This document shows positions 19,168 through 60,540 of a DNA stretch of 64,000 bases, in pieces. Made by a program: the position numbers and the translations under genes. The stretch lies in NCBI GenBank assembly GCA_049999805.1, contig JBNGIO010006223.1:224743-288742 (forward strand), written 5' to 3'. The DNA comes from Folioceros fuciformis (Eukaryota). Position 1 is the first letter of the stretch. Every line of letters begins with the position of its first letter. The notes below the pieces were generated by a model. It saw nothing but the letters and a program-made list of their open reading frames with translations, was not told the DNA's origin and ran no database searches.

Positions 19168-20043
19168 TCAAAACTCGTCGCCCACGGGAGTTAGATCGAT
19201 GTGGAAAGGCTGCCGTCCCTTACTAGCTCTGGCTATGGCCACCAGCTCCTGCAGCAGCTGCTTGAAATGACGCAGCGGCCACTGCGTGGGGCCGTCCACA
19301 GGCGAGCTCACCGGGTTGTCGTGCACCTCCATAAAGAGACCATCCACTCCCACAGCCACGCACGCCCTGGCAATGGCGGGGATGAGATCGCGCAAGCCGC
19401 CGCTCGCGACGCCACCCTCCCGCAGCTGCTGCCCCGCCGGCTGCTGCAGCGAGTGCGTCACGTCCGCCACCACGGGACAGCCCGCCGCGCGCATCCACTC
19501 CAAGTTGCGCGTGTCGACCACCAGATCGCTGTAGCCGAACATGGTGCCGCGCTCGCACACCATCACGTTGGGATTGCCGGCCCGCCGCACCTTGTCCGCG
19601 GACGCCACCATTACCGACGAGGCGCAGAATTGCCCCTTCTTGATGTTGATCACGCGCCCCGTTGCCGCGGCCGCCACCAGAAGATCCGTTTGCCGGCAGA
19701 GGAACGCGGGGATCTGCAGCACATCCGCCACCCGCGCCGCCGGCTCGCATTGCCAGGCCTCGTGCACGTCCGTCACTACAGGAATCTGTAGCTGCGTCTT
19801 CACCTCCTGCAGCACCTGCAAGCCTGCCTCCAGGCCGGGGCCCCGGAATGACGATGCCGACGTCCGGTTGGCCTTGTCGAAGCTGGCCTTGAACACCAAC
19901 TTCACGCCAAGCTCGTCAGTCACGCTTTTGATCTGCCGCGCCATCTTCAGCACATGCTCGCGCGACTCGATCACATTCGGACCAGCCATCACGAAGAAGG
20001 GCTCCGCGCCCTTCAGCTCCGAGAACAGGCCCGAAACCTCCAT
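19168..20043 (-). CDS. KDSA: KDO-8-phosphate synthase (2-dehydro-3-deoxyphosphooctonate aldolase); intronless
   Basis: Single 291-aa ORF with AGPNVIES, FKASFDKANRTS, QIPAFLCRQTDLL, INIKKGQF, CERGTMFGY, DVTHSLQQP and FMEVHD. Confidence 0.97.
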   Translation of the reverse strand: MEVSGLFSELKGAEPFFVMAGPNVIESREHVLKMARQIKSVTDELGVKLVFKASFDKANRTSASSFRGPGLEAGLQVLQEVKTQLQIPVVTDVHEAWQCEPAARVADVLQIPAFLCRQTDLLVAAAATGRVINIKKGQFCASSVMVASADKVRRAGNPNVMVCERGTMFGYSDLVVDTRNLEWMRAAGCPVVADVTHSLQQPAGQQLREGGVASGGLRDLIPAIARACVAVGVDGLFMEVHDNPVSSPVDGPTQWPLRHFKQLLQELVAIARASKGRQPFHIDLTPVGDEF

Positions 20044-20454
20044 GGCGCCACACCAACTCCTCTCACTCTCACCTCAACTTGTGCCTGCGTCCTTATAGCA
20101 TACGAAGGTAGCTAACCACCCCGGACAGCAACGAGCACCAAGACCTAGCAACATGGCTCACATACATGCTACATATATATGAATCAACCGCGCAGAAAGA
20201 CTTCACAACTTTATCAAAATACATTACACACCAAGGGCCTTGGCCTCAAGACCACGGGGCCGTGTCTTTTTCCCACAGAACGAACGCAACCTGGTGAACT
20301 CAAATCAAATGTTCAAATCTGGACGCACTTGCCACACTACACTGTAAATACCTACAGCCCACTGTCGCCTCATGCTCTTCGTTCGTCTTCGCTCCATATT
20401 GGGTGGCAGCCAACATCCAACACCACCACCACATGAAGCCCGTCATCGCAATCG

Positions 20455-23577: not shown

Positions 23578-26205
23578 CTAATCACCAACCAAAAACGTGT
23601 GCACCTGTCCGTCCATGTCTGTCCACCAGCTGTGGCCGGGCTGCTTCCATGCCCCGACTTCTTTTCTCCGATCCTGGATCTCCTGTGCGTGCTGCCACAT
23701 GCGGGCAGCGGCATATATGTTTGATATTAATACATACGGTACTGGATCTCTTTCGTCTAGCTTCACAGCTTCTTCAAAAGCTAAGCGCCCCACACCCACA
23801 TTGCTCCACTTTTGACAGGCACCCAATAGGTTGCGCCAAACTGCAGCATCAGGAGGTACAGGCATCGTCCGTATCACACCTAGCGCCTCCTCTAATTGGC
23901 CTGCACGACCCAGGAGATCCACCATGCATGTGTAGTGCTCTGCCGTGGGACTGATGCCAAATTGCCCGCTCATAGCCTCCAAGTACTCTCGCCCCTTGTT
24001 CACTAAACCCGCATGACTGCACACTGTTAGTACACTGAGAAAGGTAATACCAGCTGGCTGGACGTCATCCTCTCTCATTTTCCGCCACAAGTCGAAGACA
24101 AAGTCACTGTCACCTTGACGGGTGTAGCCCGCAATCAGTGCACTCCAGGCAACAACATCTCTTTTGGGTAATGCTTCAAACACCTGCCGTGCATCAACCA
24201 TGCTCCCCGAATGTGCATACATATTTATCAAACCGACGGCTACGAGCTCATCCGCTTGAAGACCCTGTTCCTCAATCTGTGCGTGAAGTTGCCTTCCCAG
24301 CTCCAAAGCTGCAACACTTGCACATGCCTGCAGGAGGCAGGAAAATGTCACACAATCAGGTGCAATGATCCCTTCCTCTTGCATAGCCCGGTAAAGCCCA
24401 AAGACTTCCTCTACCAGGCCCTGCTGGTAGTAGCCTGCCATCATGGCATTCCACGTCACCACATTTTTCTGATCGAGTCCTTCAAACACCCTTTGGGCCT
24501 CTTCCAGGCTGCCGCACTTCGCGTACATATTTACCAAGCTGCAACCTACAACCTCGTCGGCCTCAAATCCCCGTAATCCAATTTGTGCATGAAGCTGCTT
24601 CCCATTTTCCAAAGCTGGAGTTCCAACGCTTGCACACGCCTGCAAGAGAGATGCAAATGCCACAGTGTCGGGTACAGCAATGCCTTCATTTTGCATGGCA
24701 CTAAAAAGCTGAAGCGCTTCCTCACCCATACCCTGCTGTGCATAGCCTACTATCAGCGCAGTCCATGTCACCACATCTTTTTCACCAAGCCCGTCAAACA
24801 CCTTTTGAGCATCTTCCAAGCTGCCACACTTGGCATACATGTTTACCAAACCGCAACCTATAAACACATCAGCCTCAAGTCCTTGTTCTCTAATTTCTGC
24901 ATGAAGCTGCTTCCCCTTCTCCAGAGTCGGGCTGCCCAAACTTGCGCACGCCTGCAGGAGGCAGACAAGTGTCACAGGGTCAGGTGCAACCATGCCTTCT
25001 TCCTGCATAGTCATGTAGAGGCTAAGGGCCTTCTGTCCCTTCCCTTGCTGAGAATACCCTGCTATCATGGCATTCCACGTCACGATATCTTTTTGACCAA
25101 GTCCATCGAAAACATTTTCAGCATCCATCAAGCTACCACACTTGGCATACATATCCACCAGGCAATTGCAAACGAACAAGTTGGGCTCAACCCCAGCGGC
25201 CAACACATCAGCATGCACTCGCTGCCCAGCTTTCAAGTCTGCCCCCTTTGCACAAGCTTGAAGGGCTGCTACAAACACATGGGCATCCGGCTTCACACTT
25301 GACCGGCACATCTCGTAGTACATTTGTATCGCCTCCTTAGTTCGTCCATGGTTGACTTGTGCAGAAATTATGGAGGACCACATGAAGGCATTTGGTTTGG
25401 CAACCACAGTGAACACATCCATAGCTTCTTGCAACCTGGCGTGAGACGAATACATCCGCAGAATGTGGTTGCACAAGAAGGCGTCTGACTCGTAGCCCAT
25501 TTTCACACTGAGGGCATGAAGACGTCGACCCAGAACCAGATCCTTCTGCGTCACACATCGTTTCAGAACAGTGTAGAGAAGAGACTGAGATACACGACGG
25601 TTCTTGTGCACCAGAACTCCCAGAGCCTCAATAGCCTGAGTGAGCTGCCTCTGCTCACACAGTCTGCTCACAGTATCAGCCGTCACCCCCTCTCCGTATC
25701 CTGCGCGCCGAAGAGAATCAGAATCATCAGCCACGCTCCAATTTGTTGCAGGCGAACGACGACCCGTGCAAATCTCCAGTGCAACGAGTTGAGGATTCGC
25801 AGCAACACCATCCGTCTCACACAATTTTTTTAGCCAGAAGAACTCCTGGGATAGCCCATGGCCGAGGTCGGGCCAATTGGATCCCCCATTTTGTTGCCTG
25901 TATTCGCTTTCAAGAGGATGCCCCAGAAAGGACTGGCGCCACAAGAGCTCTTGGCGGCAACCGACCCCTCCAGAACAGTCGCTTTCACGTGTTAACGCAG
26001 AGGCAAGGGCCACTTCACTCCGGCCTTGCTTCCTCACCTTCGGCCCAGAAGAAGTGCAATGGGCCAGGCAGCCGTGACTTGCAGGGACAGTCGGCGAGCC
26101 GAAGACGCCCAGTCTGGCTCTGAAGTCCAGCCTCGGTGCTCTGCCGGAGCAAGTGCCGCAACTGACACAGTCCATGCTGGCAGACGCTGCATATGCTCTT
26201 TCCAT
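23578..26205 (-). CDS. PLS-class PPR protein with E1/E2 and WW-type PG box, truncated before the deaminase core
   Basis: About 17 P/L/S motifs, E1 (AAVWRNLLGAC), E2 (PYVLISNIYAAA), ends KQPGHSWWTDMDGQVHTFLVGD*. No HxE/CxxC. First ATG at 26205; transit-like N-terminus. Confidence 0.92.
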   Translation of the reverse strand: MERAYAASASMDCVSCGTCSGRAPRLDFRARLGVFGSPTVPASHGCLAHCTSSGPKVRKQGRSEVALASALTRESDCSGGVGCRQELLWRQSFLGHPLESEYRQQNGGSNWPDLGHGLSQEFFWLKKLCETDGVAANPQLVALEICTGRRSPATNWSVADDSDSLRRAGYGEGVTADTVSRLCEQRQLTQAIEALGVLVHKNRRVSQSLLYTVLKRCVTQKDLVLGRRLHALSVKMGYESDAFLCNHILRMYSSHARLQEAMDVFTVVAKPNAFMWSSIISAQVNHGRTKEAIQMYYEMCRSSVKPDAHVFVAALQACAKGADLKAGQRVHADVLAAGVEPNLFVCNCLVDMYAKCGSLMDAENVFDGLGQKDIVTWNAMIAGYSQQGKGQKALSLYMTMQEEGMVAPDPVTLVCLLQACASLGSPTLEKGKQLHAEIREQGLEADVFIGCGLVNMYAKCGSLEDAQKVFDGLGEKDVVTWTALIVGYAQQGMGEEALQLFSAMQNEGIAVPDTVAFASLLQACASVGTPALENGKQLHAQIGLRGFEADEVVGCSLVNMYAKCGSLEEAQRVFEGLDQKNVVTWNAMMAGYYQQGLVEEVFGLYRAMQEEGIIAPDCVTFSCLLQACASVAALELGRQLHAQIEEQGLQADELVAVGLINMYAHSGSMVDARQVFEALPKRDVVAWSALIAGYTRQGDSDFVFDLWRKMREDDVQPAGITFLSVLTVCSHAGLVNKGREYLEAMSGQFGISPTAEHYTCMVDLLGRAGQLEEALGVIRTMPVPPDAAVWRNLLGACQKWSNVGVGRLAFEEAVKLDERDPVPYVLISNIYAAARMWQHAQEIQDRRKEVGAWKQPGHSWWTDMDGQVHTFLVGD

Positions 26206-27334
26206 GCCCAACCTTGATACCACAATTTGGAGCAGGCATTTTTTCCGTGTCTCATCCGGCACATTTCAGTGCCTGCGGAAGCTTTCCAACCCCCTGTCAT
26301 TCATGTTTCGCGTCAAATGCTATCGCACTGCTTTCCGATCTCCGGCAACAGAAACGAAAGTCGATAAGCCCTAAAACTACAGCTGGTCCCTGTATAACAA
26401 GGGTCAAACTCTTCCACATTGTCTTCAATGCGAAAATGACAACCTAGCCTGTAGGGAGAAAGTGCAGGGTACCACTTCCAGACTAGAGAAGCTTGGAAGT
26501 CTAGCTTGAAGACTTCAACGAACCACACCGACTTCACTCACACTTTCTCCTTTCAGAATAAACGTCGAGGCATCTTTCTGAGAATCTGCGTCGAGTGTAT
26601 CCGCAAAGTGCCTCAACGGCTCCTGCCACCGCGAGCCCTATAGTGTGAGCGAAGCGATCAGTGAGACCGTTAAACCTAAGGATGGTGAGCGGCAAGAACA
26701 AACACCGAAATCTACCTTATCTCTTCCTTTTCCGCAGGAATTGGGGGAGTCTGCTGGGATTCTCCGCACCCATGCTAAGCTTGCTTTCCTTATCACCTCG
26801 GAACAAAAAGCCGACTGCTACAATTAAGGACCAAATAATGCATTTGCGAGTGTGAAATCCAGACGGAAACATTAGCTCGCTCCATTCTTTTCTGCCCCGC
26901 AAGTTGGAACCCGAGCCCCACAAATGTCAGTCTGATTCAGACACGAAAACGTCGGGACCCGTAGGAGGAGGTAGGGAATCACTATGGCATCCGGAGCAAA
27001 ACTGTAGATGAAGCTGACGGGTGGCAGCCATGATGAACGGTGAGTGCCTGCTCTGGTTGTGGACAGAGTCGGGATGCTCACATTAATCGTTCCTTGCTTA
27101 GTTACAATTTTACAGAAAGGTACCAATGAGTGTTGTGTAACCAGGTCGCAACGGAACGAAGGGCTCTTCAGGGGTTTAACTGAGAGGGAACGGGTGCGGC
27201 TCGCGCCATGGCACAGGAGTAGCCGCGACTGAGGAAGTGCTGGGATGTAGCCATGGAGAATCTTGTCTGAGGGACAGTGCAATGGTGGCAGTATTTATGT
27301 GACGTGTGATTTTTTAGGGTGGCGCACTGTGAGC

Positions 27335-29026
27335 ATGGCGACGCTGAGAAGCGTCCCGAGTTGCCACCTTTTCGCAGGTTCTAGAAATGAGCAGCGGCTC
27401 AGCAGCACATGGCGCAGCTCGGAGCATCCACTTCATGGCGTACGACTGGAAAGTAGAAATGTGCGACTGCGATTGGCATTTCCTTCTCGCCTTGCCAAAG
27501 AATGCCATAGGTGGCGTCATGGGGTGCAGAGCAGAAGCGGTCCAAGGATTGGCGTCACTGTGTGTAGGGGTGCAGAGCCAGAAGATGCCTCGAGCGATTT
27601 GCGTGGAGCTCCTCCCTCGACTGTGGGGAGGCCCAAAAAGTTCAGGAGCGGTGTTTTACAGCTCACGAAGTGGAGCATATCCTTCAACGACGCCGCACAG
27701 GCATTCTTCAAGAGTGAGATCAGGCGCAGGATATGTGTTACCGTTCTACTGCTTATGGCCAGCCGGGTGGGCTACTTCATCCCTCTACCCGGGTTCGATC
27801 GGCGCTTCATGCCGGGGAACTACCTGGGTTTTGTACTCGGAACAACAGAGGAAGTGGGAGAGCTGGTGCCAGAGCTGAAATTGTCGCTGTTCCAGCTTGG
27901 TATAAGCCCCTACATTTTTGCATCCATTGTAATGCAACTTGGATGTAACATGGTTCCAGCTCTTATTAAAATTCGGAAGGAGGGCATTGACGGTAACGAG
28001 AGAATCCAGAGATACGTTTGGTGGCTGTCATTGGCAGTTGCTGTAGTGGAGGCAATTGTGCTTGCGTTTCACTCAGCTTCCTATTCGATCTATGCTGCCA
28101 AGAACAAGTTCGGATATGTGACGGTGACCACTGGCCTCCTAGCAGCAGGAGCCATGGCGATGCATGCCATCTGTGAAAAAACGACGGAAGCTGGATTTGG
28201 ACATGGCTCATCTCTCATCATCTGTGTGGGCATCCTCACAGGCTATTCAGACACGCTGTTCAACATCATCTCCAACCTGTCCCGGGGTGGTGCAAGCTGG
28301 GGACCGCAGATTTTACTCTTCGTCGCCATTTTCTTGGTCATGACAATGTGGGCCGTGCTGGTGACCGAGGGTCGTCGGAAGGTGAAGCTGCAGTATTACA
28401 ATTTTGAGCTTGCCCCGACCAGCAGCGGGGCTGAGTTTTTGTACAGGCTGGGGGTAGCAACCCCTGAGGTTGAACCGTATATCCCATTCAACCTCAACCC
28501 AGGGGGGATGCAGCCCGTTCTAGCCACAACGTATCTTATGGCCCTTCCAGGTATCCTTGCAGCTTTCACCAGGAATCCCTTTTGGGTCAGGTTGACAGAG
28601 CTTCTCAACCCTGCCTTGCCTCCTGCTCCGGGAGCGCAGCCTTGGATTTACTACTCGCTTAGCATTTTCTTCATTTTTGTGTTCAACGTCCTGGACATCA
28701 GTGATACTCCCAAGGAAATTGCCAACTACATGCTAAAGATAGGAGCGAGGATTCCTAAAGTGAAACCAGGCCGGCAGACCATAGAATATTTGAACAAGGT
28801 TCAGGCATCCACGCGGTTCTGGGGAGGGTTGTTGTTGGGCTTGCTTGTCACTGTGTCTACGTTGGTGGACTTCAAGTTTCGATCACTCAGTAACACAGGG
28901 GGCAGCGCTATCGGCTTTACGTCTATGCTCATCATCGTAGGTTCCATCATAGAGCTCCGCAGGTCCTTTGCTGCCTACAACGTCATGCCTGCACTCACCA
29001 AAGTATTGCGCCGTTATGGTGCATAG
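27335..29026 (+). CDS. SCY2: Plastid preprotein translocase subunit SecY2; intronless CDS
   Basis: Transit peptide, then FFKSEIRRR...SRVGYFIPLPGFDRR, LSLFQLGISPYI, GFGHGSSLIIC, YIPFNLNPGGMQP, GARIPKVKPG and GFTSMLIIVG. Confidence 0.93.
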   Translation: MATLRSVPSCHLFAGSRNEQRLSSTWRSSEHPLHGVRLESRNVRLRLAFPSRLAKECHRWRHGVQSRSGPRIGVTVCRGAEPEDASSDLRGAPPSTVGRPKKFRSGVLQLTKWSISFNDAAQAFFKSEIRRRICVTVLLLMASRVGYFIPLPGFDRRFMPGNYLGFVLGTTEEVGELVPELKLSLFQLGISPYIFASIVMQLGCNMVPALIKIRKEGIDGNERIQRYVWWLSLAVAVVEAIVLAFHSASYSIYAAKNKFGYVTVTTGLLAAGAMAMHAICEKTTEAGFGHGSSLIICVGILTGYSDTLFNIISNLSRGGASWGPQILLFVAIFLVMTMWAVLVTEGRRKVKLQYYNFELAPTSSGAEFLYRLGVATPEVEPYIPFNLNPGGMQPVLATTYLMALPGILAAFTRNPFWVRLTELLNPALPPAPGAQPWIYYSLSIFFIFVFNVLDISDTPKEIANYMLKIGARIPKVKPGRQTIEYLNKVQASTRFWGGLLLGLLVTVSTLVDFKFRSLSNTGGSAIGFTSMLIIVGSIIELRRSFAAYNVMPALTKVLRRYGA

Positions 29027-45723: not shown

Positions 45724-48628
45724 ATGTCGCCGTTGTCATCAGCGGTGCTGCAGCTGCACGCGGGCCTGTCGAAGGGAGTTCGTTTCTTAGGACTGGCGGT
45801 GGCTGCGTGCAGGCAGGGATGGAGACACGTTCACAGTGATTCTGTGGGGATGACCGTCCTGAAAGCTTCCAGGTGAGGCGTCGTGAATAAGATGCGTGTC
45901 CTGTGCATGGGGGCGAGGCCCAAGCCTGATTGAAGATGTCGGTGTAGTGATGCTGCAGGGGCGAATGGGATGTGGCCATTTCTGTCCTTGGATGTGGAGG
46001 AGGTCGACCAGACGCTCGGGGCATGGGCAGCGAAGCCGAATTGTCCTGTAAAGAACCTCACTGTCGGCAAGGTAGACCGTCTGGTTGTGAAGTGGCTTCT
46101 CAGTGCCGCTTGCGAGTTGTTTGAGTAACCAAGGCTTGACTGTCGCCTGCGGTTTGGAAGGACTCACGCCCTGACAGTCCCGTCAACGTTGCAGATTTGC
46201 AGTGGATGGAGGAGCCGTATGTGCTCCGGCTCCCAGCACATTACGTAACGAGGGGTTCGATCGTAAGGGTGTTGGACATTTGGAGCTTCTGGTGCATCAA
46301 GGATGTTCTATTTCCTCGCGGCTCTTTTATCAATTACTTCAAGGATGCATCGTGGACAAAGATCTCGTGCTGGGTAGGCGGGTCCATGCCCTTGCCCTTG
46401 AAAGTGGGTATGGATGCAACTTATTCTTGGCTAATCACTTCATCCGCATGTACGCATCTGAAGGAAAGTTGGAGGAGGCTACGCTGCTATTTTCCGAAAT
46501 CAATGGACCTGACACTTTTTCATGGTCCTACATAATTTTGGCTCATGTTGACAGTGGGCATCATCAGCGGGCTATAGAACTGTATCAGCAGTTGCGACAA
46601 TCCACTGTAATGCCAGACAACCATATTTTTGTCGCCGTCCTCAATGCGTGTGCAAGCACTGAAGATTTGGCATCTGGCAAGCAAGTCCATGTAGATATTC
46701 TTGGCAGTTTGGCGGAGCCTGATGTGTTTGTTGGCAGCAGCCTGGTAGACATGTATGCAAAATGTAGTAGTGTGCAGGATGCACGGAGGGTTTTTGACTC
46801 CGTTCCATCTAGAAATGTGGTGACCTGGAATGCCATGCTTGCAGGCTATGCTCAGGTGGGGCTGGGTCAGGAGGCTCTTGCCCTCTATGCAGGTATGCAA
46901 AAACAGGGCGTTATTGCCGACCAGGTGACCTTTTTGTCGCTCCTCAAAGCAGTTAACGGCATGGGATCCTTACATGAAGGGAAGGTGCTTCATTCGGAAA
47001 TCAAAGAACGAGGGTTTGAGGCTGATGAAGCAGTCGGCAGCAGCCTGGTACACATGTATATAAGGTGCGGAAGCTTGGAGGATGCACGCAGAGTATTTGA
47101 TAGGTTACCCACAAGAGATGTTGTGACATGGAACGCTATGTTTGCAGGATACGCTCAACATGCTCTTGGTGAAGAGGCTTTTTCTCTTTACACAAGGATG
47201 CAACAAGAGTTTCACGTTCCAGCGGATCGGGTTACATATTTGTGCCTTCTGAAAGCGTGTGCCAGCATTGGAGCTTTACAAGCTGGGAAGGAGTTGCATT
47301 TGCAGATTCAGGGAAAACAGTTGGAGTCTGACAAGTTTATTGGCAACTTCTTGGTGGACATGTATGTAAAATGCGGCTGCTTAGAGGACGCACTTCGGGT
47401 GTTTAACAGGTTGCCGACGAAAGATACTGTAACCCGGGCAGCCGTGATTGCAGGGTATACTGAGCAAGGTTTGGACCAAGAAGCATTAACTCTTTGGGCA
47501 CGGATGCAACGGAATGGTGGCAACGCACCAGACCGTGCTACGCTTGTTTGCCTTGTGAAGGCATGTGCTAAGGTTGGTGCTTTGGGTCTGGGGAAGGCTC
47601 TTCACTGTCAGATGCAGCAGAAAGGACTGGTGGACGCTGATGTGCATGTAGGCACCAGCCTTGTGGACATGTATGCAAAATGTGGGAGTCTCCAGTGTGC
47701 TCGCAAGGTGTTTGACAGTCTACTGATAAAAAATGTGGTAACATGGAATGCCCTTCTGAATGGTTACAGCCAACACAATGATGGCCCAATGACAAGGCAG
47801 TGTTTTGCGGAGATGCAGCGACACGGAGTAAATCCGGATGCCGTTACTTTTCTTTGCCTACTTGTGGCATGTTGCCGTGAGGGCCTGGTGTATGAGGGAC
47901 AGCAGTATTTCAAGATGATGCGGGAGGAGTACGGCATTATGCCAAATGCTTCTCACCTTTCTTGTATAGTTGATCTTCTTGGCCGGTCAGGGCGCCTGGG
48001 TGAGGCAGAAAGTTTGTTGCTGTCCATGCCTGTGGATGATGCTATAGGTTGGAGATCTTTGCTGAGTGCTTGCAAACTGCACCGTGACGTAGTGCGTGGA
48101 GAGCGATGTTTTGACCGTCTCGTTCAGATGGATACGCAGGATGGAGCTGCCTACACGATCATGTCCAACATTTATGCCGCGAGTGGCAGGTGGGTGGATG
48201 TCGATGGGATAGAAAGTCTTAGGAAGGGTGCAGGTGCGTGTAAGAAGCCTGCAAGGGCCTGGATCGAGGTGAACAATGAGGTGCATTCGTTCATTGTTGG
48301 TGAAGGAAGGGATGACATATCCAGGAAGCTCGGCAGTGTGAATCGGCAGTTGGGGGAGGAGGTTTCTAATGTGATAAGCTCAGTTGCGGAGAGAGTCAAC
48401 GATGATACCTTGTGTGAACACGCTGAGAAACTTGCATTAGCGTATGGCCTCCTCAACACCCCCAAGGGTGCAACGTTGATAGTCACGAAGAATCTTCGTA
48501 TGTGCAATGACTGTCATACTGGCACCAAGATCATGTCGAGAACCGAAAGGCGAACTATTGTAGTCAGGGATACCCGCAGCGTGCATGTATTTGTGGATGG
48601 CTCGTGTTCGTGTGGGGATCGGCCATGA
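45724..48628 (+). CDS. PLS-class PPR with complete DYW:KP-type deaminase domain (candidate U-to-C RNA editing factor); exons 45724-45872 and 46195-48628
   Basis: 17 PLS motifs, E1, E2, KKPARAWIEV, LCEHAEKLA, KNLRMCNDCH, CSCGDRP*. In-frame phase-2 intron AG|GTGAGG...ctgac...ttgcag|A adds a 50-aa presequence-like exon. Confidence 0.93.
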
Positions 48629-50908: not shown

Positions 50909-53785
50909 CTATACAAATACTTTGTCTCCGACAGAAAAAGTATGCACCACTCCATGAACGTCTGTCCACCAACTTTGGCCTGGCTCCTTCCAGGCCCCGA
51001 CTCCTGTTCTCCTCGCCTGTATTTCCCGTGCCTTCTCCCACATCTGGGCACTGGTATAAACGTTCGACATCAAGACATAAGCCGCTGCATCTTTCTCGTC
51101 TAGCTTCACAGCTTCGGCAAAGGCATGGCACCCAACCTCTACATTGCTCCATTTTTGACATGCACCCAGAAGAGTGTGCCAAACAGCAGCATCAGGGATT
51201 GCAGGTATTACCCTCACCAAAGCTAGTGCCTCCTCCAATTGCCCCGCACGACCCATCAGGTCCACCATGCATGTGTAGTGCTCTGCTCTGGGAATAATGC
51301 CATATTGCCTTGTCATGGCTTCGAAGTGTTCTTGCGCTTTACCCACTAGACCTGCATGACTGCATACCGTCAGTATACTAAGTACGGTGATGTCGTCTGG
51401 TTGTTTGCCTTCCTGTGCCATTCTGTGAAAGGACTCAAATACCATTTGGCTGTCTCCTTGATAGGTGTAGCCTGCAATAAGGGCATTCCAGGCGACAACG
51501 TCCCGCCTGGGCAATGCCTCAAACACCTGTTGTGCATCAACCATGCTCCCAGATTTTGAATACATGTTGATCAAACTGACAGCAACTAGCACGTCAGCTT
51601 GAAGACCTCGTTCTTCGGTTTGCGCATGAAGCTGCCTTCCCAGTTGCAATGCTGCAACATTTGCGCAAGCCTGAAGTAGGCACGCGAACGTCAGAGAGTC
51701 GGCTGCCACCATGCCTTCTTCTTGCATAGCAGTGTACAGGGAAAGGGCTTCCTGCCCCATGCCCTGCTGGCAATTCCCTGCTATCATGGCATTCCAAGTC
51801 GCTACGTTCTTCTCGTCCAGTCTGTCGAACAATCCGCGAGCTTCTTCCAAGCTGCCAGATTTTGCATAACCTGCTATCATGGCATTGCACATCACCACAT
51901 TCTTCGTGCACAGTCCGTCGAACACTCTTTGAGCATCATCCAAACTCCCACACTTAGCATACATGTTTACCAGGCTACAGCCCAGAAACAAATCCACTTG
52001 AAGTCCTTGTTCTCGTATCTGTGCATGAAGCTGCTTTCCCTTCCCCAAAGCCTGCGTACCAACTCTTGCACATGCCTGCAAGAGGCAAACAAATGTCACC
52101 GAATTCGGTACAGCAATGCCGTCTGCTTGCATAGCACTGAAACGATCAAGGGCTTCCTGACCCATACCCTGCTGGGCATATCCTGCTATCAAAGCAGTCC
52201 ACGTCACCACAGTCTTTTCATCAAGCCCATCAAACACGCTCTGAGCATCTTCCAAGTGACCACACTTTGCATACATGTTTACGAGGCTGCAACCTACAAC
52301 ACTGTCGGTCTGCAAGCCCTGTTCCGCAATCTGCGCATGAAGATGCCTCCCATACTCCAAAGCAGGGATGCCCACGCTGGCACATGCCTGTAAGAGGCAC
52401 ACAAATGTCACAGAATCAGGGGTAGCGATACCTTCTTCTTGCATAGCAATGTAGAGATGAAGGGCTTCCTCGCCCAAATTCTGCTGTGAGTATCCTGCCA
52501 TCATAGCATTCCATGTCACTACATTTTTTTGACTAAGTCCGTCAAACACTCTCTGGGCATCTTCCAAGCTGCCACACTTCGCATACATGTTTACGAGACT
52601 GGAACCTACAACCACATCACCCTCAAGCTCTTGCTCTTGAATCTGTGCATGAATCCGCCTGCCCTTCTCCAACGCTGGGGCACCCACACTGGCACAAGCC
52701 TGCAGGACGCCGACAAACGTTACAGAAGTAGGTGCCGAGATGGCTTCCTCTCGCATATCGCTGTAGAGAATAAGTGCCGTCTGGCCCATGCCCCTCTGAG
52801 AATATCCTGTTATCATGGCATTCCATGTCACCACATCCTTCTGATCAAGTTCATCGAACACTGTTTGAGCATTTTCCAAGCTGCCACACTTGGCATACAT
52901 GTCTACCAGGCAATTGCAAACAAACAAATTGGGCTCAACCCCACTGGCCAAGACATCAGCATGCACCTGCTGCCCGGTTTCCAAGTCTGCTGCCCTTGCA
53001 CAAGCCTGAAGTGCTGCTACGAACACATGACCATCTGGCTTCACGCTTGACCTGCGCATCTCGTGGTACAGTTGTAGGGCCTGCTTATCTCGTCCGTGTT
53101 TAACATGAGCGGTAATGATGGCAGACCACGTAAAGGCATCTGGTTTGGACACCGCCGTGAATACGTCCATTGCTTCTTGCAACCTGCCATGAGAAGCATA
53201 CATCCGCATGATGTGATTGCACAAGAACGTATCCGACTCACATCCTGCCCTCACAACGAGAGCATGAACGCGGCGGCCCAACGTAAGAACCATACCTCTC
53301 TTCAGTGCCGAGTAAAAGAAGGACTGAGAAATGGGACAATCCGCCTGCACCAGAACTCCTAGAGCTTCAACAACCTCCGGGAGCTTCCACTTTTGACGAA
53401 AATCGCTCACACTTTCAGGAGTTGCGCCGCTTTTGCATCCTGCAGACCCGACAGGGTCGCGATAATTTAGCAGACTCGAGTTGGCTGTGCCATCACGCCG
53501 ACCGATTCCGAATTCCAGAGCAGCATCTCGGCTGCAAATGTTGTCTGGCCACAGAACCTCCTGGGGCTCCCCAATCCAGAAGTCAGGCAAATGGGAGCCT
53601 TTCTTATGTTCGTTTGCTACCAGGTCTAGGGAAGCTGTCTCCATAAGAAGTCCTGTTGCCCACCGCCTGGACGATGTGCAATGCGAGAGGGAACTATAAT
53701 CCAAATAAGCTCTTGAGTCAAGGCTGAATCCAAATCCCTGCTCCAGTGCCCCAGTTGGGGTGACGAGGGAGGTAACACGATCCAT
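50909..53785 (-). CDS. PLS-class PPR with E1/E2 and WW-type PG box, truncated; paralog of 23578-26205
   Basis: About 21 motifs, ends KEPGQSWWTDVHGVVHTFSVGDKVFV*. First in-frame ATG at 53785; the frame is open to 53896, so an upstream exon is possible. Confidence 0.92.
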   Translation of the reverse strand: MDRVTSLVTPTGALEQGFGFSLDSRAYLDYSSLSHCTSSRRWATGLLMETASLDLVANEHKKGSHLPDFWIGEPQEVLWPDNICSRDAALEFGIGRRDGTANSSLLNYRDPVGSAGCKSGATPESVSDFRQKWKLPEVVEALGVLVQADCPISQSFFYSALKRGMVLTLGRRVHALVVRAGCESDTFLCNHIMRMYASHGRLQEAMDVFTAVSKPDAFTWSAIITAHVKHGRDKQALQLYHEMRRSSVKPDGHVFVAALQACARAADLETGQQVHADVLASGVEPNLFVCNCLVDMYAKCGSLENAQTVFDELDQKDVVTWNAMITGYSQRGMGQTALILYSDMREEAISAPTSVTFVGVLQACASVGAPALEKGRRIHAQIQEQELEGDVVVGSSLVNMYAKCGSLEDAQRVFDGLSQKNVVTWNAMMAGYSQQNLGEEALHLYIAMQEEGIATPDSVTFVCLLQACASVGIPALEYGRHLHAQIAEQGLQTDSVVGCSLVNMYAKCGHLEDAQSVFDGLDEKTVVTWTALIAGYAQQGMGQEALDRFSAMQADGIAVPNSVTFVCLLQACARVGTQALGKGKQLHAQIREQGLQVDLFLGCSLVNMYAKCGSLDDAQRVFDGLCTKNVVMCNAMIAGYAKSGSLEEARGLFDRLDEKNVATWNAMIAGNCQQGMGQEALSLYTAMQEEGMVAADSLTFACLLQACANVAALQLGRQLHAQTEERGLQADVLVAVSLINMYSKSGSMVDAQQVFEALPRRDVVAWNALIAGYTYQGDSQMVFESFHRMAQEGKQPDDITVLSILTVCSHAGLVGKAQEHFEAMTRQYGIIPRAEHYTCMVDLMGRAGQLEEALALVRVIPAIPDAAVWHTLLGACQKWSNVEVGCHAFAEAVKLDEKDAAAYVLMSNVYTSAQMWEKAREIQARRTGVGAWKEPGQSWWTDVHGVVHTFSVGDKVFV

Positions 53786-54079
53786 ACGCGGAGCTAGACC
53801 GCAGCCTCCGCGATCTCGAGACAGGGACAGAGTTTCAGCAAATCCGACTACCACAGAGCTGCTCCTGCTGCAAATTGCAAGTGTGTGGATATCCAAGAGT
53901 CATGGATTTGGTGAACTTTCATTGACCCTGCTCCAACCTCAATACTCTCACCATATGTGAGAGAAGTAGTGCGTGAGTGATCGCCAGCTTCTCGCTCTGC
54001 ACACACAAAAAGGCATTCCTTCTCCACAACCCCCCAAAGCCAAGTGCTTGTTCTGACTGGGGAGAAGCTGCATCAGCCA

Positions 54080-54390
54080 GGATGCTTTTATCGCCAAGCA
54101 AAAACTATGCACGAATCCATCCAAGTCTACCCACCAGCTCTGGCCAAGCTGCTTTCTGGACTGGATTCCTGTCCTCCTCGCCTGCATACCCTTGCCTGCT
54201 CCCACATCTCGGCAGCGGTGTGTACGCTGGACGCACCACACATGCTGCCACATCTCCGCTGTCCAGCTTCACCGTCGCATCGAAAGCATGACTTCCAAGT
54301 TCCAACCTTGGCATTATTCCACTTTCGACAAGGTCCCAATGGAATTTGGCCAACTGAAGCTATCGGCACAACAGGCATTGTCCTTACTGG
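54080..54390 (-). pseudogene. Frameshifted C-terminal fragment (E1/E2/WW box) of a PPR gene
   Basis: Pieces in three frames: MPVVP...LGPCRKWNN / LGSHAFDATVKLD / YTAAEMWEQAR / QARRTG...KQLGQSWWVDLDGFVHSF / GDK, colinear with the ends of the two WW-type PPRs. Confidence 0.85.
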
Positions 54391-55238
54391 AAGATGTGCG
54401 TGAACACGTATAAGCTAGGTTCTTGCTTTCGAATTCAGTGCTGATGTTGCCGCTGGTGTTGAAGTATCCGCGTGTCTTGGTATTGTAGGCGCTGCCCTGC
54501 GCTGCTTATGCCCAGGCGTCGGATCGTTGGATGACTGCCTTCAGCATACTAACGTACGAGGTGTAACACAGGCCCTACTCACATTGCGTGAGGCCTCCGT
54601 CCGTCCGCAGCCCGCGTATAGCGGGCACCGGACGGAGCTGTAGCGCACCGTGCGTCGGGCCCGCTAAAAATGGGAGATTCGTTATATGTAGGAATGGTAT
54701 TTAGGGTTTCAGTCAGGAAGGACCCGTTATTCCGTCCGGGTATATAGCTCCAAGGCTTTCCCATCGATACCCGATGGCCATTAAGGCAAATACGGTCAAC
54801 AGACCCGTGCGGATGCGCAACCCGATGTACCGTGGCTTCATATCGACATACACGACATAGCAGCAACATCAGTTTGTAGGTCCCGTCGCATACTCGGGTT
54901 TTTGCACCCGTTCTCTCTACCTGCATTTCCATACCCGGCTTTCCATACCCGGGATGGAAGGATTTTAAACCCGTCGGTTTGAAGTCCAGGTTTCAAATCA
55001 GCTTTTCAAAGCTGTGCACTTCTCATCGCGGGTGAACCAATCTAAAAAGAAAGCGGTGCAGATGCGACAAGACGCTGAATCTGCTGCCGAGTGCAGATGT
55101 AGTTGGCTAGCTTCCTGGCGGTTTTCGTGTCCAAGGGGAGAGTGGGTGTGCTGGTTGAGACTGAGTTTCGGGTTGCGAGGATGCGTAAACTCAGGATCTA
55201 TTTGGTGGCATTAGGGCTGTGCTGGGATTTCTATCAAG

Positions 55239-55746
55239 ATGGCAGAACTCGCAATGGTTGCGGCCCAGGTCCTGCTCAAAGTGGTTTTGCTGGCGCACGA
55301 CTTGTGGGCTCCTAAAAGCCAGAGCTGTCAAATGGCTGCGGAGCTAAGCCTGCTGGAGAAGAACTTGGAACACAACATGATGGCGTTGGGCGGCAACCAG
55401 TTTTGTCGCAGGAACATAGCAGCTTGGGCTCTTGGCATGTATCTTGCATGCAGCTGCGTAATTGTTTGCTGCCTCTGATACTGGTGTATGCGGTGCAAGT
55501 CACTGATGAGAGTGAACTTGTGTCTGCCATTTTGTAAGGGCCTTGGAACAGGAACTTCGGCACACAATCAAGGATAGGCACAAAATTCTAGGCATGGGGT
55601 TTCTGGCGGCGCACTGGGACGCCAACCAGATACTTTTTGAACTACACTCGCTCCGACAGCGTGTGATGATTTTCTTTCAAACCACGTTGTTCATTACTTT
55701 CCTCAAAGTATGCAGCCGTTTTGATGACAGTGACGCTCCTTCGTAG
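55239..55746 (+). CDS. Small spliced helical protein resembling an MLKL/MCAfunc-type four-helix-bundle domain; element cargo
   Basis: Exon 55239-55438 joins 55539-55707 in frame through a 100-nt GT-AG intron. Product MAELAMVAAQVLLKVVLLAHDLWAPKSQSCQMAAELSLLEKNLE...GFLAAHWDANQILFELHSLRQRVMIFFQTTLFITFLK. 3' end uncertain. Confidence 0.5.
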
Positions 55747-55961
55747 CACCCTGTTTTTATTTCTCTACTATGTGCATCTCTACTGTGTGCATGAGGCATA
55801 AGGCGGCAGTAGAGAGCATGGCATAGCGGGACAAGTTCCAATTGGCTCTGAACCTACACTGGGACCTCTTCGTCAACATCCCATAAAGCTCTTCGGCAGC
55901 AGCTTAAGGGTTTTTGACAGTTGCCGAATTCTCACCTTTTAAAATCAAAAGAGGATTCTGA

Positions 55962-56052
55962 CCTCTAAGACAAACAGCATAGAATCCTCTAAGACAAATA
56001 GCACAGAATCCTCTAAGACAAACAGCACAGAATCCTCTAAGACAAACAGCAT
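55962..56052. repeat. 24-bp tandem repeat x4 inside the MULE-like element
   Basis: Unit cctctaagacaaacagcayagaat at 55962, 55986, 56010 and 56034, preceded by an inverted partial copy gaggattctg. Confidence 0.93.
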
Positions 56053-56238
56053 AATTGACCCGATCAAAACTGAGTGCTATCCGTTATTTTCTCTCAGCAC
56101 CGTACAAAAGTGGATTGGTCAGCTTCTAAAACCAAAAGTCTATTTCAGCTCATCAATCCACTCTTTATCAACTACCTATGTTCCACCTCACCGTCTTTTT
56201 CTTCTTATACACAACTTCCTCCAAACCAACATATCGTT

Positions 56239-58610
56239 TCAGTCTATTCGTGCCCTCATTCTCAGCAAAAGTTTCCAACACTTGTTTTTGTTGAGGTTGT
56301 TCGTTTGCGTGTGCACTAATTGTCTCACCTTCTGTTGAATTTGCTCCATAATGGATGCTATCCCAAAAGCTAAATCTGAATGCTCAAATGCGGTATCACA
56401 TACTTTAGCACATGTCGTTTTAATAAAATCCAACCGTTTTTCTTTTGCCATCTCCAATTCTGTCTTACATATTGGTGCCACCAAGGGGTTGCTAGGCAAT
56501 ACAATGTGTGGAGCTTCTTGATCCTGCATCCAAAAAGCCATAGCCAAGTTATTGGTATCACTACTTTCAGCAACATACGCTCCTTTTGTTCTTCCATTTT
56601 GCCTAGCTGCTGCTGCACCATCCTTGTATATGCCAAGGAGTTGTTGAACTTTCACCACATGCTTGCGGATGAAACCTTTGTTCCCCATTGGACATGAGTA
56701 TGTAGCCCAAGGAGAGTAAACATGTTCAATCACATACCACAAGTTAGGGTCGATGAAGACAAACAATGTGCAGCAACATTTTCAAAATGCGGTAAAATAA
56801 TTAAGCTCATAGAAATAATTTTTTGCACCCTTCATAGTGGTCTCCTCCAAAGCCTCCAGTTTCTTGTTATGCTTGTATCTCCCTTCTTTCGTGAAGTGCT
56901 GGTACCAATAATGTGGGGCAATCACATTCACTAATTGGTGTAGTAACCAATCTAGTCTACGACCAAGCAAACTTGACTTGCTAAATGCTGCATGTTTATT
57001 TATAAATCTATGGAATCCTTCCACAACTGAAGTTGTATGTTGCCCTGCATGAGGCAACATTCTAGCATTACACAACCACATATCTATAGTCTCTCCCCAT
57101 TGAACCTTCATATATCTCACAAACTCTCCTTCACTTGTTCCTCATTTGTCATAAAAATTGTGTAGCATACTTCTTCCTATGGAAACACACTGTAAAGATG
57201 TGCTTGCCCTTGTGACATACATAATATCCCCTAGCTTTGCCCATATTGAAATTCGATTACTTTGTGAGTGCACTTTCTTCAATAAATTTCGTCTCCACGC
57301 TTTCCGCACATGCCACAAGCATAATAATATAGGCATATTATGATTCCACAGTGAGCGCATAGTAGAAATCTCTGCCTGACAATCATCAACAAGGACTGAA
57401 CTAGGTGCCCAATCCTTGTTGATCTTTTCAACCTTCTTCTATAAAGCTGAAAGCCACTTGACAAGTGACTCAGAAGTAGCATCTTTTGTAATAGCCCATG
57501 CTACTGGAACACCATTCAAGTAATGGTCAAAACCCATCACAGTGAATAAGTGGTAGTGATACCTGTTCAACCCAAAAGTTGCATCCATAGCTAGCACATT
57601 ACCATTCCCATAAAGCAACATGTAATTTAACATAAAAGGAGTTTGAATACCCAAAGCGAAAGGTTGATTCTCGCTTGATTGATGGAAGATTATAGACACA
57701 TTTTGCTCCAACCACAGGGACACCGATGTGGCATCATCTGGGGCTAGCTTCCATTCACCAACTTCAACTTGTGTAAGTATATTGAGAACATCATATCTTT
57801 GCATATAATCATCTCTTACTAGCTCATATACCTCTGTCTGATTGTTGATTTGAGCATACAATGCATCTTGATGTCGACGCATTATTTCATGAACAGGAAC
57901 TTTGCAATATAGGCAATGCCTAATCCAATCCTTCTTTTCCTATGAAAGCCATGTTGCTCTGACATCACGGGATAAGCCTTCATACCCAAGCTCATGACAT
58001 ATAGCATTTGAAAGGTCAATATGCATATGTTCAAAAAGACCAATCTCAGCAACCGTAGGCCACACGAGAAGTTTCTTCACCCTAAAATTTGCTTGGCAAC
58101 CATGCTTGATACTCTCTCCACGGAGGACCTTACACTTAGCTGTATTAGCACCACGTGACACTCCCACCTCCTTTTGACGAAAGTCTTCCGGGCCGTAAGA
58201 ACACCAATACCTGCAAGCCACTCTCACAATGTTCATGCCTCCCTAAGTTATAAAACAATTTGCATACTTCAAACCTTCTTACCTAACATATAATGCAGCT
58301 GTATGCATTGTCAGTACTGGAGGGCAAGGTAAACTTCTCGGCCCTTTAGAATCCTTCTTGTAGAAGTTCGTAGGATGGGAACTTATAGCACTCATTCCCC
58401 CAATCAAGTCTCCCACTCTAGAAAAGAGTATGTGAGCCACCTTCACATGTTTTTTCTGCCCTGGTGCCCTAGAATGGTCATATTGAGAAGAACCCAGTTT
58501 AGGTCAGTATGGTTAAATAATCCTAATTTAGGAAGCTGCACTACAAAAGGTGTGTTAGTTGGTAACTCTTCTAAATTAATACAAGAACTCAAATCCATAT
58601 TATTATCCAT
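56239..58610 (-). pseudogene. Decayed MULE transposase with SWIM zinc finger
   Basis: YWCSYGPED, KHGCQANF, AMDATFGLN...LFTVMGFD...GVPVAWAI, VLVDD, LLCLWHVRKAW, TTSVVEGFH, GRRLDWLL, degenerate SWIM YSCP...IRKH. In-frame stops at 57940, 57439, 57142 and 56782. Confidence 0.88.
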
Positions 58611-58867
58611 AAATCACATTGCCCTATCCCAAAGAGAAAAAAAACCCTAACTGTAACCCTAATCTCAACCTTTAACCAAAATCCCTATCCCTAATCACAA
58701 GAGCGCTTGAAAGCAAAGATTGAACATGCCGCTCTAAACTCGCATCTAACGCTATGCAAATGACAAGGAGTTCACATACCATAAGCTTGTGAGCTAGGGT
58801 GGTGCACTTGGAGCGTTAAACAAGTATTATTAGTAACGTGTAAGCGGGTAAGTACGAGCAGCTTTCT

Positions 58868-58966
58868 CATGTCCCATGTTGGTGGTATGTAGCGCACTGG
58901 GCCTCAAAGCTTTTGGCCATGTCCCGTGTTAGTGGTATGTAGCGCACTAGCCTCAAAACTTTTGGC
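58868..58966. repeat. ~50-bp tandem duplication near the right inverted repeat
   Basis: catgtcccrtgttrgtggtatgtagcgcact...cctcaaarcttttggc at 58868 and 58918. Confidence 0.9.
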
Positions 58967-59328
58967 CACCTGTTCGGATTATGCATGACTCACCATAGCA
59001 TGGTGATGGGCAAGGACATAAAGAGGTACATGTCGTGGCTGTGGAGCGCCGTGCGGACACACGTGCCCGCCTTAATGGCCATCGGGTATCCATTTGCAAG
59101 CAGCTCCAAGTAGCCCGGGTTTGCTCTTCTCTTCCTTCTCGTTTTTCATGCAGACCTCGCTAGGAGTGTCTAGCACTGGGACTTCCCTTCTTCTCGTCTC
59201 CAATTGAGAGTCTTGTGTCTGAGTTCTTCTTTTTTTTCTATATATGATTATATTGATTATCTTATTTTTAGTTATCGATCTAGTGTTATTTTTAGTTATG
59301 GATCCTATGTTGTGCTTCATGCTTCAAG

Positions 59329-60480
59329 TTATTGTTCTTGTCTTTGTCTACGCCAATGCTTGACCAAGGCATTGTGTTGAACCAATGCAATACTCTTCAT
59401 AGCCTCTTCCTCTTCACTTGTCAAGATAACAGGAACATTATGTGGTAGAGGATACTCGACCACCCTTGGTTCCGAAGGTTCTAAGTCACCAGCAACAATG
59501 CAAAAGTTGTGCAAAACACAACAAGCAACATATTTCACGTGGACGTTGAGGTTCTTCAATATTTTGCACCTATTCTTTAATAAGAAGAAAGCATTCTCAA
59601 TGATAACTCGCAAAGAAGAAAAGGAAGAGTTGAATGCTCTTTGCTCTGCATTCATAGGCATTTTGAAGCCTTTCATAAGAAAAGGTCTCAGAGGATACGC
59701 GGAGTCACCAATGATGTAAGGAGGTACTAGAACTCCCTCCACTTCAATGATTGGCCCTGCAAATATCCATCTAGTGATTAGGCGCTGCCATAAGCTACTA
59801 TTCCGGAGAATACCAGCGTCATTTGAATCTCCCGGACTATTAGCACATATATCAATGAACATCTTCTCGTTATCACATACGGCTTGCACAACCATGCAAT
59901 GTATATCGTATCGTTTGCAGTGATAAGCAGCTGGAGTGTACTACTTAGCTGGTTTGGTGGCAAACTTGATAAGGGATCAATCTATAGTACCAACAATATT
60001 AGGCAATAGGGTCCGCTGCTCAAATGTTGTTGATATGTCAACCTGACGACGAATTGATGAAATGGTGATAAAAGAAGAATAGAGCTTGGTAGGATCACTT
60101 AAGATGGAAACAATGAGCTTAGTATACTCAACAATTGTGGCATCACCAACGCCATATTTCGAAGCAACGATGAGGGAAGGTAGACCCCTGTTGAGCCTAT
60201 GCAACACCAAAGCAATAGAGCTTTATCACACGGTATAGACGTTCTTGGTGAGGTTCGTACAAGGAAAGGATGCAGTTGTTGAACGAGAACTATGAAAGTT
60301 GGATATGACATTCGGTATTCTCTATGCCAATGCTCATCTCGTTTATCAGGACCTTTCCAAGTGCCAAGCTTGCATGTGTAGCTCTTCCCATAACCATGTA
60401 AAAGATGGAGCTTTCCACCAAATACGACTTTTTTGCATGTGCAAAGTCTCCACAAGAGCACCACATGAAGCTGCCATTTT
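59329..60480 (-). pseudogene. PIF/Harbinger (HARBI1-like, DDE_Tnp_4) transposase relic
   Basis: EYRMSYPTF, LHRL...KYGVG, LPNIVGTID*, VVQAVCD...FIDI...PGDSNDAGIL, IIGDSAYPL, RVIIENAF. Contains frameshifts and a stop. Confidence 0.9.
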
Positions 60481-60540
60481 ATGTGCTTGAGTGATGTACT
60501 TTGTTGCACAAATAACTGAATAAGTTAGCAAGTGATAAAC

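Follow-up and report, generated by a model that had tools for sequence, protein, structure and literature searches.

As far as is known, it is mainly through Mutator-like elements (MULEs) with extra genes that DNA transposons of plants copy and rearrange the coding sequence of their hosts and at times put it to new use; Pack-MULEs and VANC are the standard examples. The two genes of the autonomous maize Mutator element MuDR are convergent, and the terminal inverted repeats (TIRs) of VANDAL elements are short or absent. MuDR has the genes mudra and mudrb, and its insertion creates target site duplications (TSDs) of 9 bp; 12 maize elements with full-length mudrb-like genes are described, in none of which both genes are intact (as given in PMC10401008). 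VANDAL21 (Hi) of Arabidopsis is described as encoding VANA, VANB and VANC, with tandem repeats outside the coding sequence (PMC5735166); a MAIN-like gene of the host is the probable source from which VANC was captured, according to PMC13547354. Pack-MULEs are reported to take up GC-rich host sequence and to have TSDs of 8-11 bp (PMC5861414), and Pack-type elements are presented in PMC8903248 as non-autonomous and without transposase. Here we describe a MULE in a 64,000-nucleotide stretch of Folioceros fuciformis DNA (contig JBNGIO010006223.1, positions 224,743 to 288,742, forward strand; the whole stretch is called the window, and all coordinates refer to it). The element encloses a broken transposase gene on the minus strand and, pointing towards it, a plus-strand second gene, called the cargo gene below. 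The MULE family and the two-gene layout are already known; the cargo is an orphan. We consider it probable that the cargo is passenger or accessory coding DNA which was amplified together with a MULE subfamily.

The element is bounded by four features.

54746-54754, no strand: left TSD copy, 9 bp, AGCTCCAAG, identical to the right copy
54755-54787, plus strand: left TIR, 33 nt, inner 22 nt (54766-54787) perfect
59069-59101, minus strand: right TIR, 33 nt, inner 22 nt (59069-59090) perfect
59102-59110, no strand: right TSD copy, 9 bp, AGCTCCAAG, abutting the TIR tip

The initial annotation had placed the ends at 54766 and 59090, on perfect 22-bp inverted repeats. Within the 64-kb window there are exactly two occurrences of this 22-mer, in inverted orientation (54766-54787 on the plus strand and 59069-59090 on the minus strand). 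No further match with up to 3 mismatches was found in the window, and none of 100 shuffles gave two matches. While the repeats were as described, the true ends lie 11 bp farther out on each side: the 22-mers are the inner perfect cores of longer 33-nt arms, which are complementary at 29 of 33 positions (88%), and the whole element spans 54755-59101 (4,347 bp). Directly outside both 33-nt TIRs, AGCTCCAAG forms a perfect 9-bp direct repeat, which had been missed because the ends were set 11 bp too far in. A perfect 9-bp TSD at the TIR tips is a hallmark of Mutator elements. Its length falls inside the range of 8-11 bp given for MULEs in PMC5861414 and PMC10401008, and a given 9-mer is matched by chance with a probability of ~4e-6.

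Contigs from public sequencing runs of the same organism (X1-X4, of which X1-X3 are DNA) were aligned to 54300-59500, and their depths were not taken as copy numbers. The right junction was spanned by X1 and X2 contigs covering 59072-59276 with 0 differences, which indicates that the insertion is present in the sequenced sample. Contigs matching at 85-100% likeness numbered 601 in X1, 482 in X2 and 512 in X3. The similarity of other copies ended exactly before 54755 in 7 contigs of X1 and 6 of X2, with a flank agreement of 0.45-0.49 at this left tip, and exactly behind 59101 in 7 contigs of X1, 6 of X2 and 4 of X4. Since the flanking letters of these copies agree mutually at only 0.45-0.6, the copies represent different insertion sites of one family. 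Single-contig joints (54997 to 56357, 57100 to 58543 and others) look like deletion derivatives. In one contig each of X1 and X2, 54733 is followed by 10 other letters and then by 59102, so that the 9-mer is present only once. These two contigs represent a related empty site, allelic or paralogous; the evidence is coherent but weak, because the shorter side has only 35 letters. Their source could be a paralogous site or, if the insertion is heterozygous, the allele without the element. TSD, shared ends, deletion derivatives and empty site together are the usual marks of a family of cut-and-paste DNA transposons, and the element is thus confirmed as one insertion of a multi-copy MULE. No other copy was found in the 64-kb window by blastn, and the 22-mer had no match in the JGI metagenome contigs.

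The empty-site contigs stand at about single-copy depth. A 47-nt duplication in which the alignment goes back lies nearby, at 54590-54636.

The minus-strand gene is the following.

56239-58503, minus strand: MULE transposase pseudogene in one frame, TGA at 56239-56241, six in-frame stops

The stops, which are due to point mutations, lie at 58279, 58243, 57940, 57439, 57142 and 56782; the frame can be read through without any frameshift. At least four stops had been counted before, and four of the six indeed lie inside the core at 58242-56239. The piece at 57439-57939 matched the Pfam DDE-domain family MULE (PF10551) over profile positions 1-47 (E 2.1e-06, 28.5 bits, cut-off 27.6) and the ZSWIM1-3 RNaseH-like family (E 8.6e-09). 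Past the stop at 57439 the MULE profile resumes at positions 58-98 (E 0.058). The N-terminal piece gave a weak match to ALS2CR8 (E 0.012) and looks by eye like a DNA-binding region, possibly a zinc finger of the WRKY/FAR1 type. The C-terminal 180-aa piece had no SWIM zinc-finger family among its Pfam matches (E <= 10), and what may be a SWIM remnant is, by eye, without two of the Cys residues. The earlier designation as a MULE/SWIM transposase therefore stands for the MULE domain, and the SWIM label is unconfirmed because no SWIM family matched. With six in-frame stops the present copy is presumably unable to make transposase and cannot move itself.

Base composition differs along the element. 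The transposase has a GC content of 0.407 and a CpG observed/expected ratio of 0.37 (0.13 in 58243-58700), the element ends ~0.50 and 0.78-1.12, and the cargo region 0.505 and 0.60. The differences between copies are mostly C>T and G>A. Contrast and substitution excess together fit a methylation-driven decay of the body, which would have affected the ends and the cargo less.

Movement of the present copy would occur in trans, with an intact family member recognising the TIRs and the ACCCG-rich left subterminal repeats, and would be of the cut-and-paste mode with a 9-bp staggered cut. The subterminal regions have the following repeats.

54769-54973, plus strand: left subterminal region with 7 ACCCG motifs and a 14-bp direct repeat, x2, at 54926-54952
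58868-58968, no strand: right subterminal tandem repeat, 50-bp unit x2

The left subterminal region is the candidate for a transposase-binding and promoter region.

The cargo gene and the array next to it are arranged as follows.

55239-55438, plus strand: exon 1, ATG at 55239, 66 full codons plus 2 nt, GT donor at 55439
55439-55538, plus strand: intron 1, 100 nt, GT..AG
55539-55707, plus strand: exon 2, open, ending in phase 0, GT donor at 55708
55708-55902, plus strand: intron 2 and/or the undefined last exon; homology to other cargo copies stops at ~55902
55962-56051, no strand: 24-bp tandem array, 3.8 copies, 95% matches, between the two genes

Exons 1 and 2 make 123 codons. It had been proposed that a convergent plus-strand second gene is separated from the transposase by a 24-bp array, and that its first two exons are open while the transposase is broken. 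Both points were borne out, with two open translations and GT and AG at the borders. The expression check gave transcript-like, spliced evidence for the gene family in run X4, taken as RNA by guess. One X4 contig covers 55182-55435, another covers 55538-55708 and ends at the exon-2 donor, and one joins 55434 to 55538 across intron 1; a further contig (55406-55563) retains the intron. Transcription would start at ~55180. None of the rows listed for the DNA runs has a joint at intron 1. X4 gave no cover over 56040-57779, a part of the transposase, which was not taken as silence, as contigs show presence only. Behind 55902 the other copies diverge in various ways: one X4 contig continues with 255 unlike letters, and three X2 contigs agree at 0.58. 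The X4 contigs, the homologue P0001 and the predicted helices (both below) make the plus-strand gene credible, and it is probably spliced and transcribed in the organism.

Homologues of the exon-1 translation were sought by an exhaustive phmmer search of 1,835,955,588 representative proteins, which returned 2 proteins at E <= 0.001. One of them, P0001 (92 aa), is 44-47% identical and aligned over exon-1 residues 1-66 (E 4.4e-04). Its similarity begins at the initiator Met and covers exon 1 to the final residue; beyond this point the two diverge, as expected if the predicted P0001 reads into an intron at the same place. P0001 was also the only relative found with an exon-1 profile against proteins of 36-161 aa, and it forms an unnamed cluster with 1 member. 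The second protein, P0002 (685 aa, 26% identity in 6 stretches), was rejected as a low-complexity match to a repetitive protein. Exon 2 had 1 candidate among longer proteins, and none scored. The exon-1 alignment gave 292 pattern matches in JGI metagenome contigs, none of which was confirmed by tblastn. No Rfam match was obtained over 54000-60500. On these searches the cargo appears to be an orphan of a lineage-restricted family.

Several observations weigh against a coding cargo gene amplified with its MULE. As to the transcripts, X4 is an RNA run by guess only, and the joint in its spliced contig lies within 1 nt of the predicted acceptor and 4 nt off the predicted donor, with the intervening letters reported as not known. 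The X4 contigs differ from this copy by ~5% (12 of 254 and 13 of 171 letters), which means that expression comes from a different copy. As to the reading frame, open reading frames (ORFs) of 70-137 aa abound in this GC-rich stretch in either orientation, and openness alone is weak evidence because of this. There are several candidate phase-0 acceptors after exon 2, none of them confirmed, and the 3' end is undefined. As to the element, its TIRs are short (33 nt) for a plant MULE, long TIRs being given in PMC3310237 as typical of most of them. A word-index search for relatives of the 166-aa transposase piece gave 157 candidates and none at E <= 1e-05, which is weak evidence. As to the origin of the cargo, both element ends are GC-rich as well (0.50, with the CpG ratio given above), and composition fails to single out the cargo as foreign because of this. 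No parent host gene was seen and no match elsewhere in the 64-kb window.

Some of these points also suit the absence of a functional gene. The two open exons would then be what is left of a captured gene fragment, or belong to a part of the transposon that is transcribed without coding, with chimeric or read-out transcripts, as is the case for most Pack-MULE cargo. ORFs of this size on both strands, an exon 3 and stop that are not defined, and an expressed copy ~5% away would all be expected of such remains. None of the four cargo translations matched any Pfam family at E <= 10, the "recognition" values of ESM were low (1243 and 1253), and very large databases held a single homologue. However, it is the encoded protein that resembles P0001, and the resemblance breaks off at the splice site. 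The exon borders are precise GT-AG sites at which X4 contigs end or are joined, and helices are predicted throughout. We regard the absence of a functional gene as unlikely.

The probable reading, passenger or accessory coding DNA amplified with a MULE subfamily, leaves two origins for the cargo, and the odds between them are roughly even: acquisition from a host gene (transduplication, Pack-MULE-like), or a long-standing accessory gene of the mudrB or VANB/VANC type. Acquisition, if it took place, would have been into a transposase-bearing element. There are hints of a host origin in the composition of the cargo, which is like that of the host genes in the window, in the varied divergence at 55902 and in the copy that skips or replaces 54998-56356. 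The divergence at 55902 is compatible with a parent locus and is not proof of one.

Compared with the Pack-MULEs of rice and other plants, the element likewise has MULE termini and a TSD around GC-richer, gene-like, transcribed sequence. Unlike them, it has a full-length though dead transposase frame between its TIRs, so that its structure is not that of a non-autonomous Pack-type element. Its cargo also has its own ATG and intact splice sites, and no parent gene was identified in the window.

A native accessory gene would be an old, family-specific second gene with a role like that of mudrB or VANB/VANC. It may be needed for insertion or for escape from silencing, possibly via the element's own tandem repeats, and selection may keep it open even in copies whose transposase has decayed. 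The convergent two-gene layout with an intergenic tandem array agrees with this, as does a cargo that is open opposite six transposase stops, and the 44-47% identical protein homologue would point to long-lasting coding constraint. VANC is reported to target tandem repeats in the non-coding parts of VANDAL21 (PMC5735166), and accessory proteins of transposable elements are described in PMC13547354 as lineage-specific and fast-evolving.

The initial annotation had expected other copies to carry the gene, and this held in part. Cargo-like sequence occurs in many DNA contigs, which again suits an accessory gene, but in at least one related copy 54998-56356, with the cargo gene, is absent or replaced. 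The varied divergence at 55902 also argues against an accessory gene, being as expected if the gene occurs in other contexts too. No DNA-binding or other domain was found in Pfam searches of the exon halves. The 9-mers of the array unit recur within the element only in 2 overlapping places in the transposase frame, at 56756-56757, and are absent from the termini. Taken as a reading of its own, a native accessory gene is a serious alternative, which we rate well below an even chance.

The comparison with the two-gene elements gives likenesses and differences of the same kind. MuDR, too, is of the Mutator superfamily, has a 9-bp TSD and carries a transposase and a small second gene at the other end, and maize has copies with an intact second gene and a broken transposase (PMC10401008). 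The TIRs are 33 nt here, as against ~150-215 nt in Mu elements, and the likeness to the second gene of MuDR is one of layout alone (a second, convergent gene). VANDAL21, too, is a MULE with extra lineage-specific ORFs and non-coding tandem repeats. Unlike VANDAL21, however, the element has one extra ORF instead of two, no similarity of the cargo to VANC or another family was found (Pfam, E <= 10, exon halves), and the 24-bp array shows no sign of being a binding target.

The fold and family tests were run on the separate exon halves of the 123-aa peptide. For exon 1, AlphaFold2 predicted helices at residues 2-23, 30-52 and 54-65 (predicted local distance difference test score, pLDDT, 64; two-sequence alignment). 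Exon 2 alone was modelled as one long helix (pLDDT 90), which is uninformative on packing. The first 19-25 residues are hydrophobic (Kyte-Doolittle 1.98), and the amphipathicity of the helices is modest. The cargo protein is thus predicted to be all-helical, with about four helices of which the first is hydrophobic.

The initial annotation had likened it to the N-terminal bundles of MLKL, MCAfunc and HeLo. It would then be a membrane-permeabilising bundle of the MLKL/MCAfunc/HeLo/RPW8 type, carried as a cell-death effector or selfish toxin. The prediction of about four helices over 123 residues with a hydrophobic first helix is consistent with this: the N-terminal domains of these proteins are likewise small and all-helical. 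The RPW8/HR, MLKL and HELL domains, the last of them fungal, are considered homologous in 10.1101/682807. In contrast, no profile, sequence or specific structural match to them was obtained. Neither exon matched a Pfam family at E <= 10. A sequence search of the PDB gave chance-level matches only, to unrelated proteins (an uncharacterised protein, E 0.1, and a Ras protein, E 0.58). In the ESM Atlas, exon 1 had no usable match, and for exon 2 unnamed clusters scored at most 0.81, no better than chance by the tool's figures. With the exon-1 model, Foldseek found 133 matches up to E 10, headed by designed hairpins, and none of them reached E <= 0.001; VIA-align with the same model gave tied generic helical matches only. 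MLKL, HeLo and RPW8 were not among the Foldseek and VIA-align matches listed, which excludes nothing. The exhaustive phmmer search with exon 1 returned no plant MLKL-type protein, and the Cys of the K-x-x-x-C motif, on which the likeness had drawn, is Gly in P0001, the sole homologue. Of the structural check as carried out with the exon-1 model, the helices were recovered and the death-domain match was not. The proposed likeness found no specific match in Pfam, PDB, ESM Atlas, Foldseek or VIA-align; because the tests used exon halves, the fold claim is unproven rather than refuted. We consider a death-domain effector highly improbable. If true, a membrane-active bundle would link transposons to cell-death-type effectors in plants, but its odds are low. 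A narrow literature search joining "Mutator-like" with "MLKL" gave nothing relevant, and no wider absence is claimed from it.

It is also conceivable, though quite doubtful, that the cargo is a new kind of MULE accessory gene: an orphan of about four helices, amplified, open and expressed, with a hydrophobic first helix, which would stay open while the transposase decays, would act in trans for the family, for example against silencing or on membranes, and might even be pore-forming. If so, the element would belong to a Mutator lineage which has two genes and lies outside the grasses and the Brassicaceae. A cleanly bounded copy with a dead transposase and an open, apparently spliced orphan offers a test case of whether cargo is selected, as an accessory factor, or carried along.

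The 24-bp array sits in an open frame at 55943-56338 on the plus strand (131 aa), in which it reads as an 8-residue peptide repeat. This frame is reachable from exon 2 via phase-0 AG sites, and no supporting contig was seen.

An imperfect 22-nt inverted repeat (82%) at 55069-55090 and 55893-55914 brackets the cargo gene. Its right arm overlaps 55902, the point where other copies diverge, and most other copies differ at 55089-55090, inside its left arm. The repeat could mark the limits of an acquired segment. As it is 1 of 12 such pairs in 6 kb, which is chance level, it was rejected as a marker and is judged likely to be due to chance.

To the right of the MULE, a 203-aa ORF at 59329-59940 on the minus strand matches DDE_Tnp_4 (E 2.7e-18) and Plant_tran (E 7e-07) and, from these matches, is classed as a PIF/Harbinger transposase fragment. 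The flanks at 54474-54754 and 59102-59345 also draw several contigs, and the MULE may lie inside or beside another repeat; no TIR pair of a host element was found around it. Elsewhere, the window has three long PPR genes that each consist of a single ORF and carry an E motif, at 23578-26265 (minus strand), 46175-48628 (plus strand) and 50909-53899 (minus strand), one of which also has a DYW deaminase domain. Uninterrupted ORFs encode SecY (27251-29026), a protein of the DAHP_synth_1 family (19168-20073), an enoyl-CoA hydratase and a BTB-ankyrin protein, and a Kelch-repeat gene is also present. By its gene content the window appears to be a gene-dense, intron-poor stretch of a genome of land-plant type.

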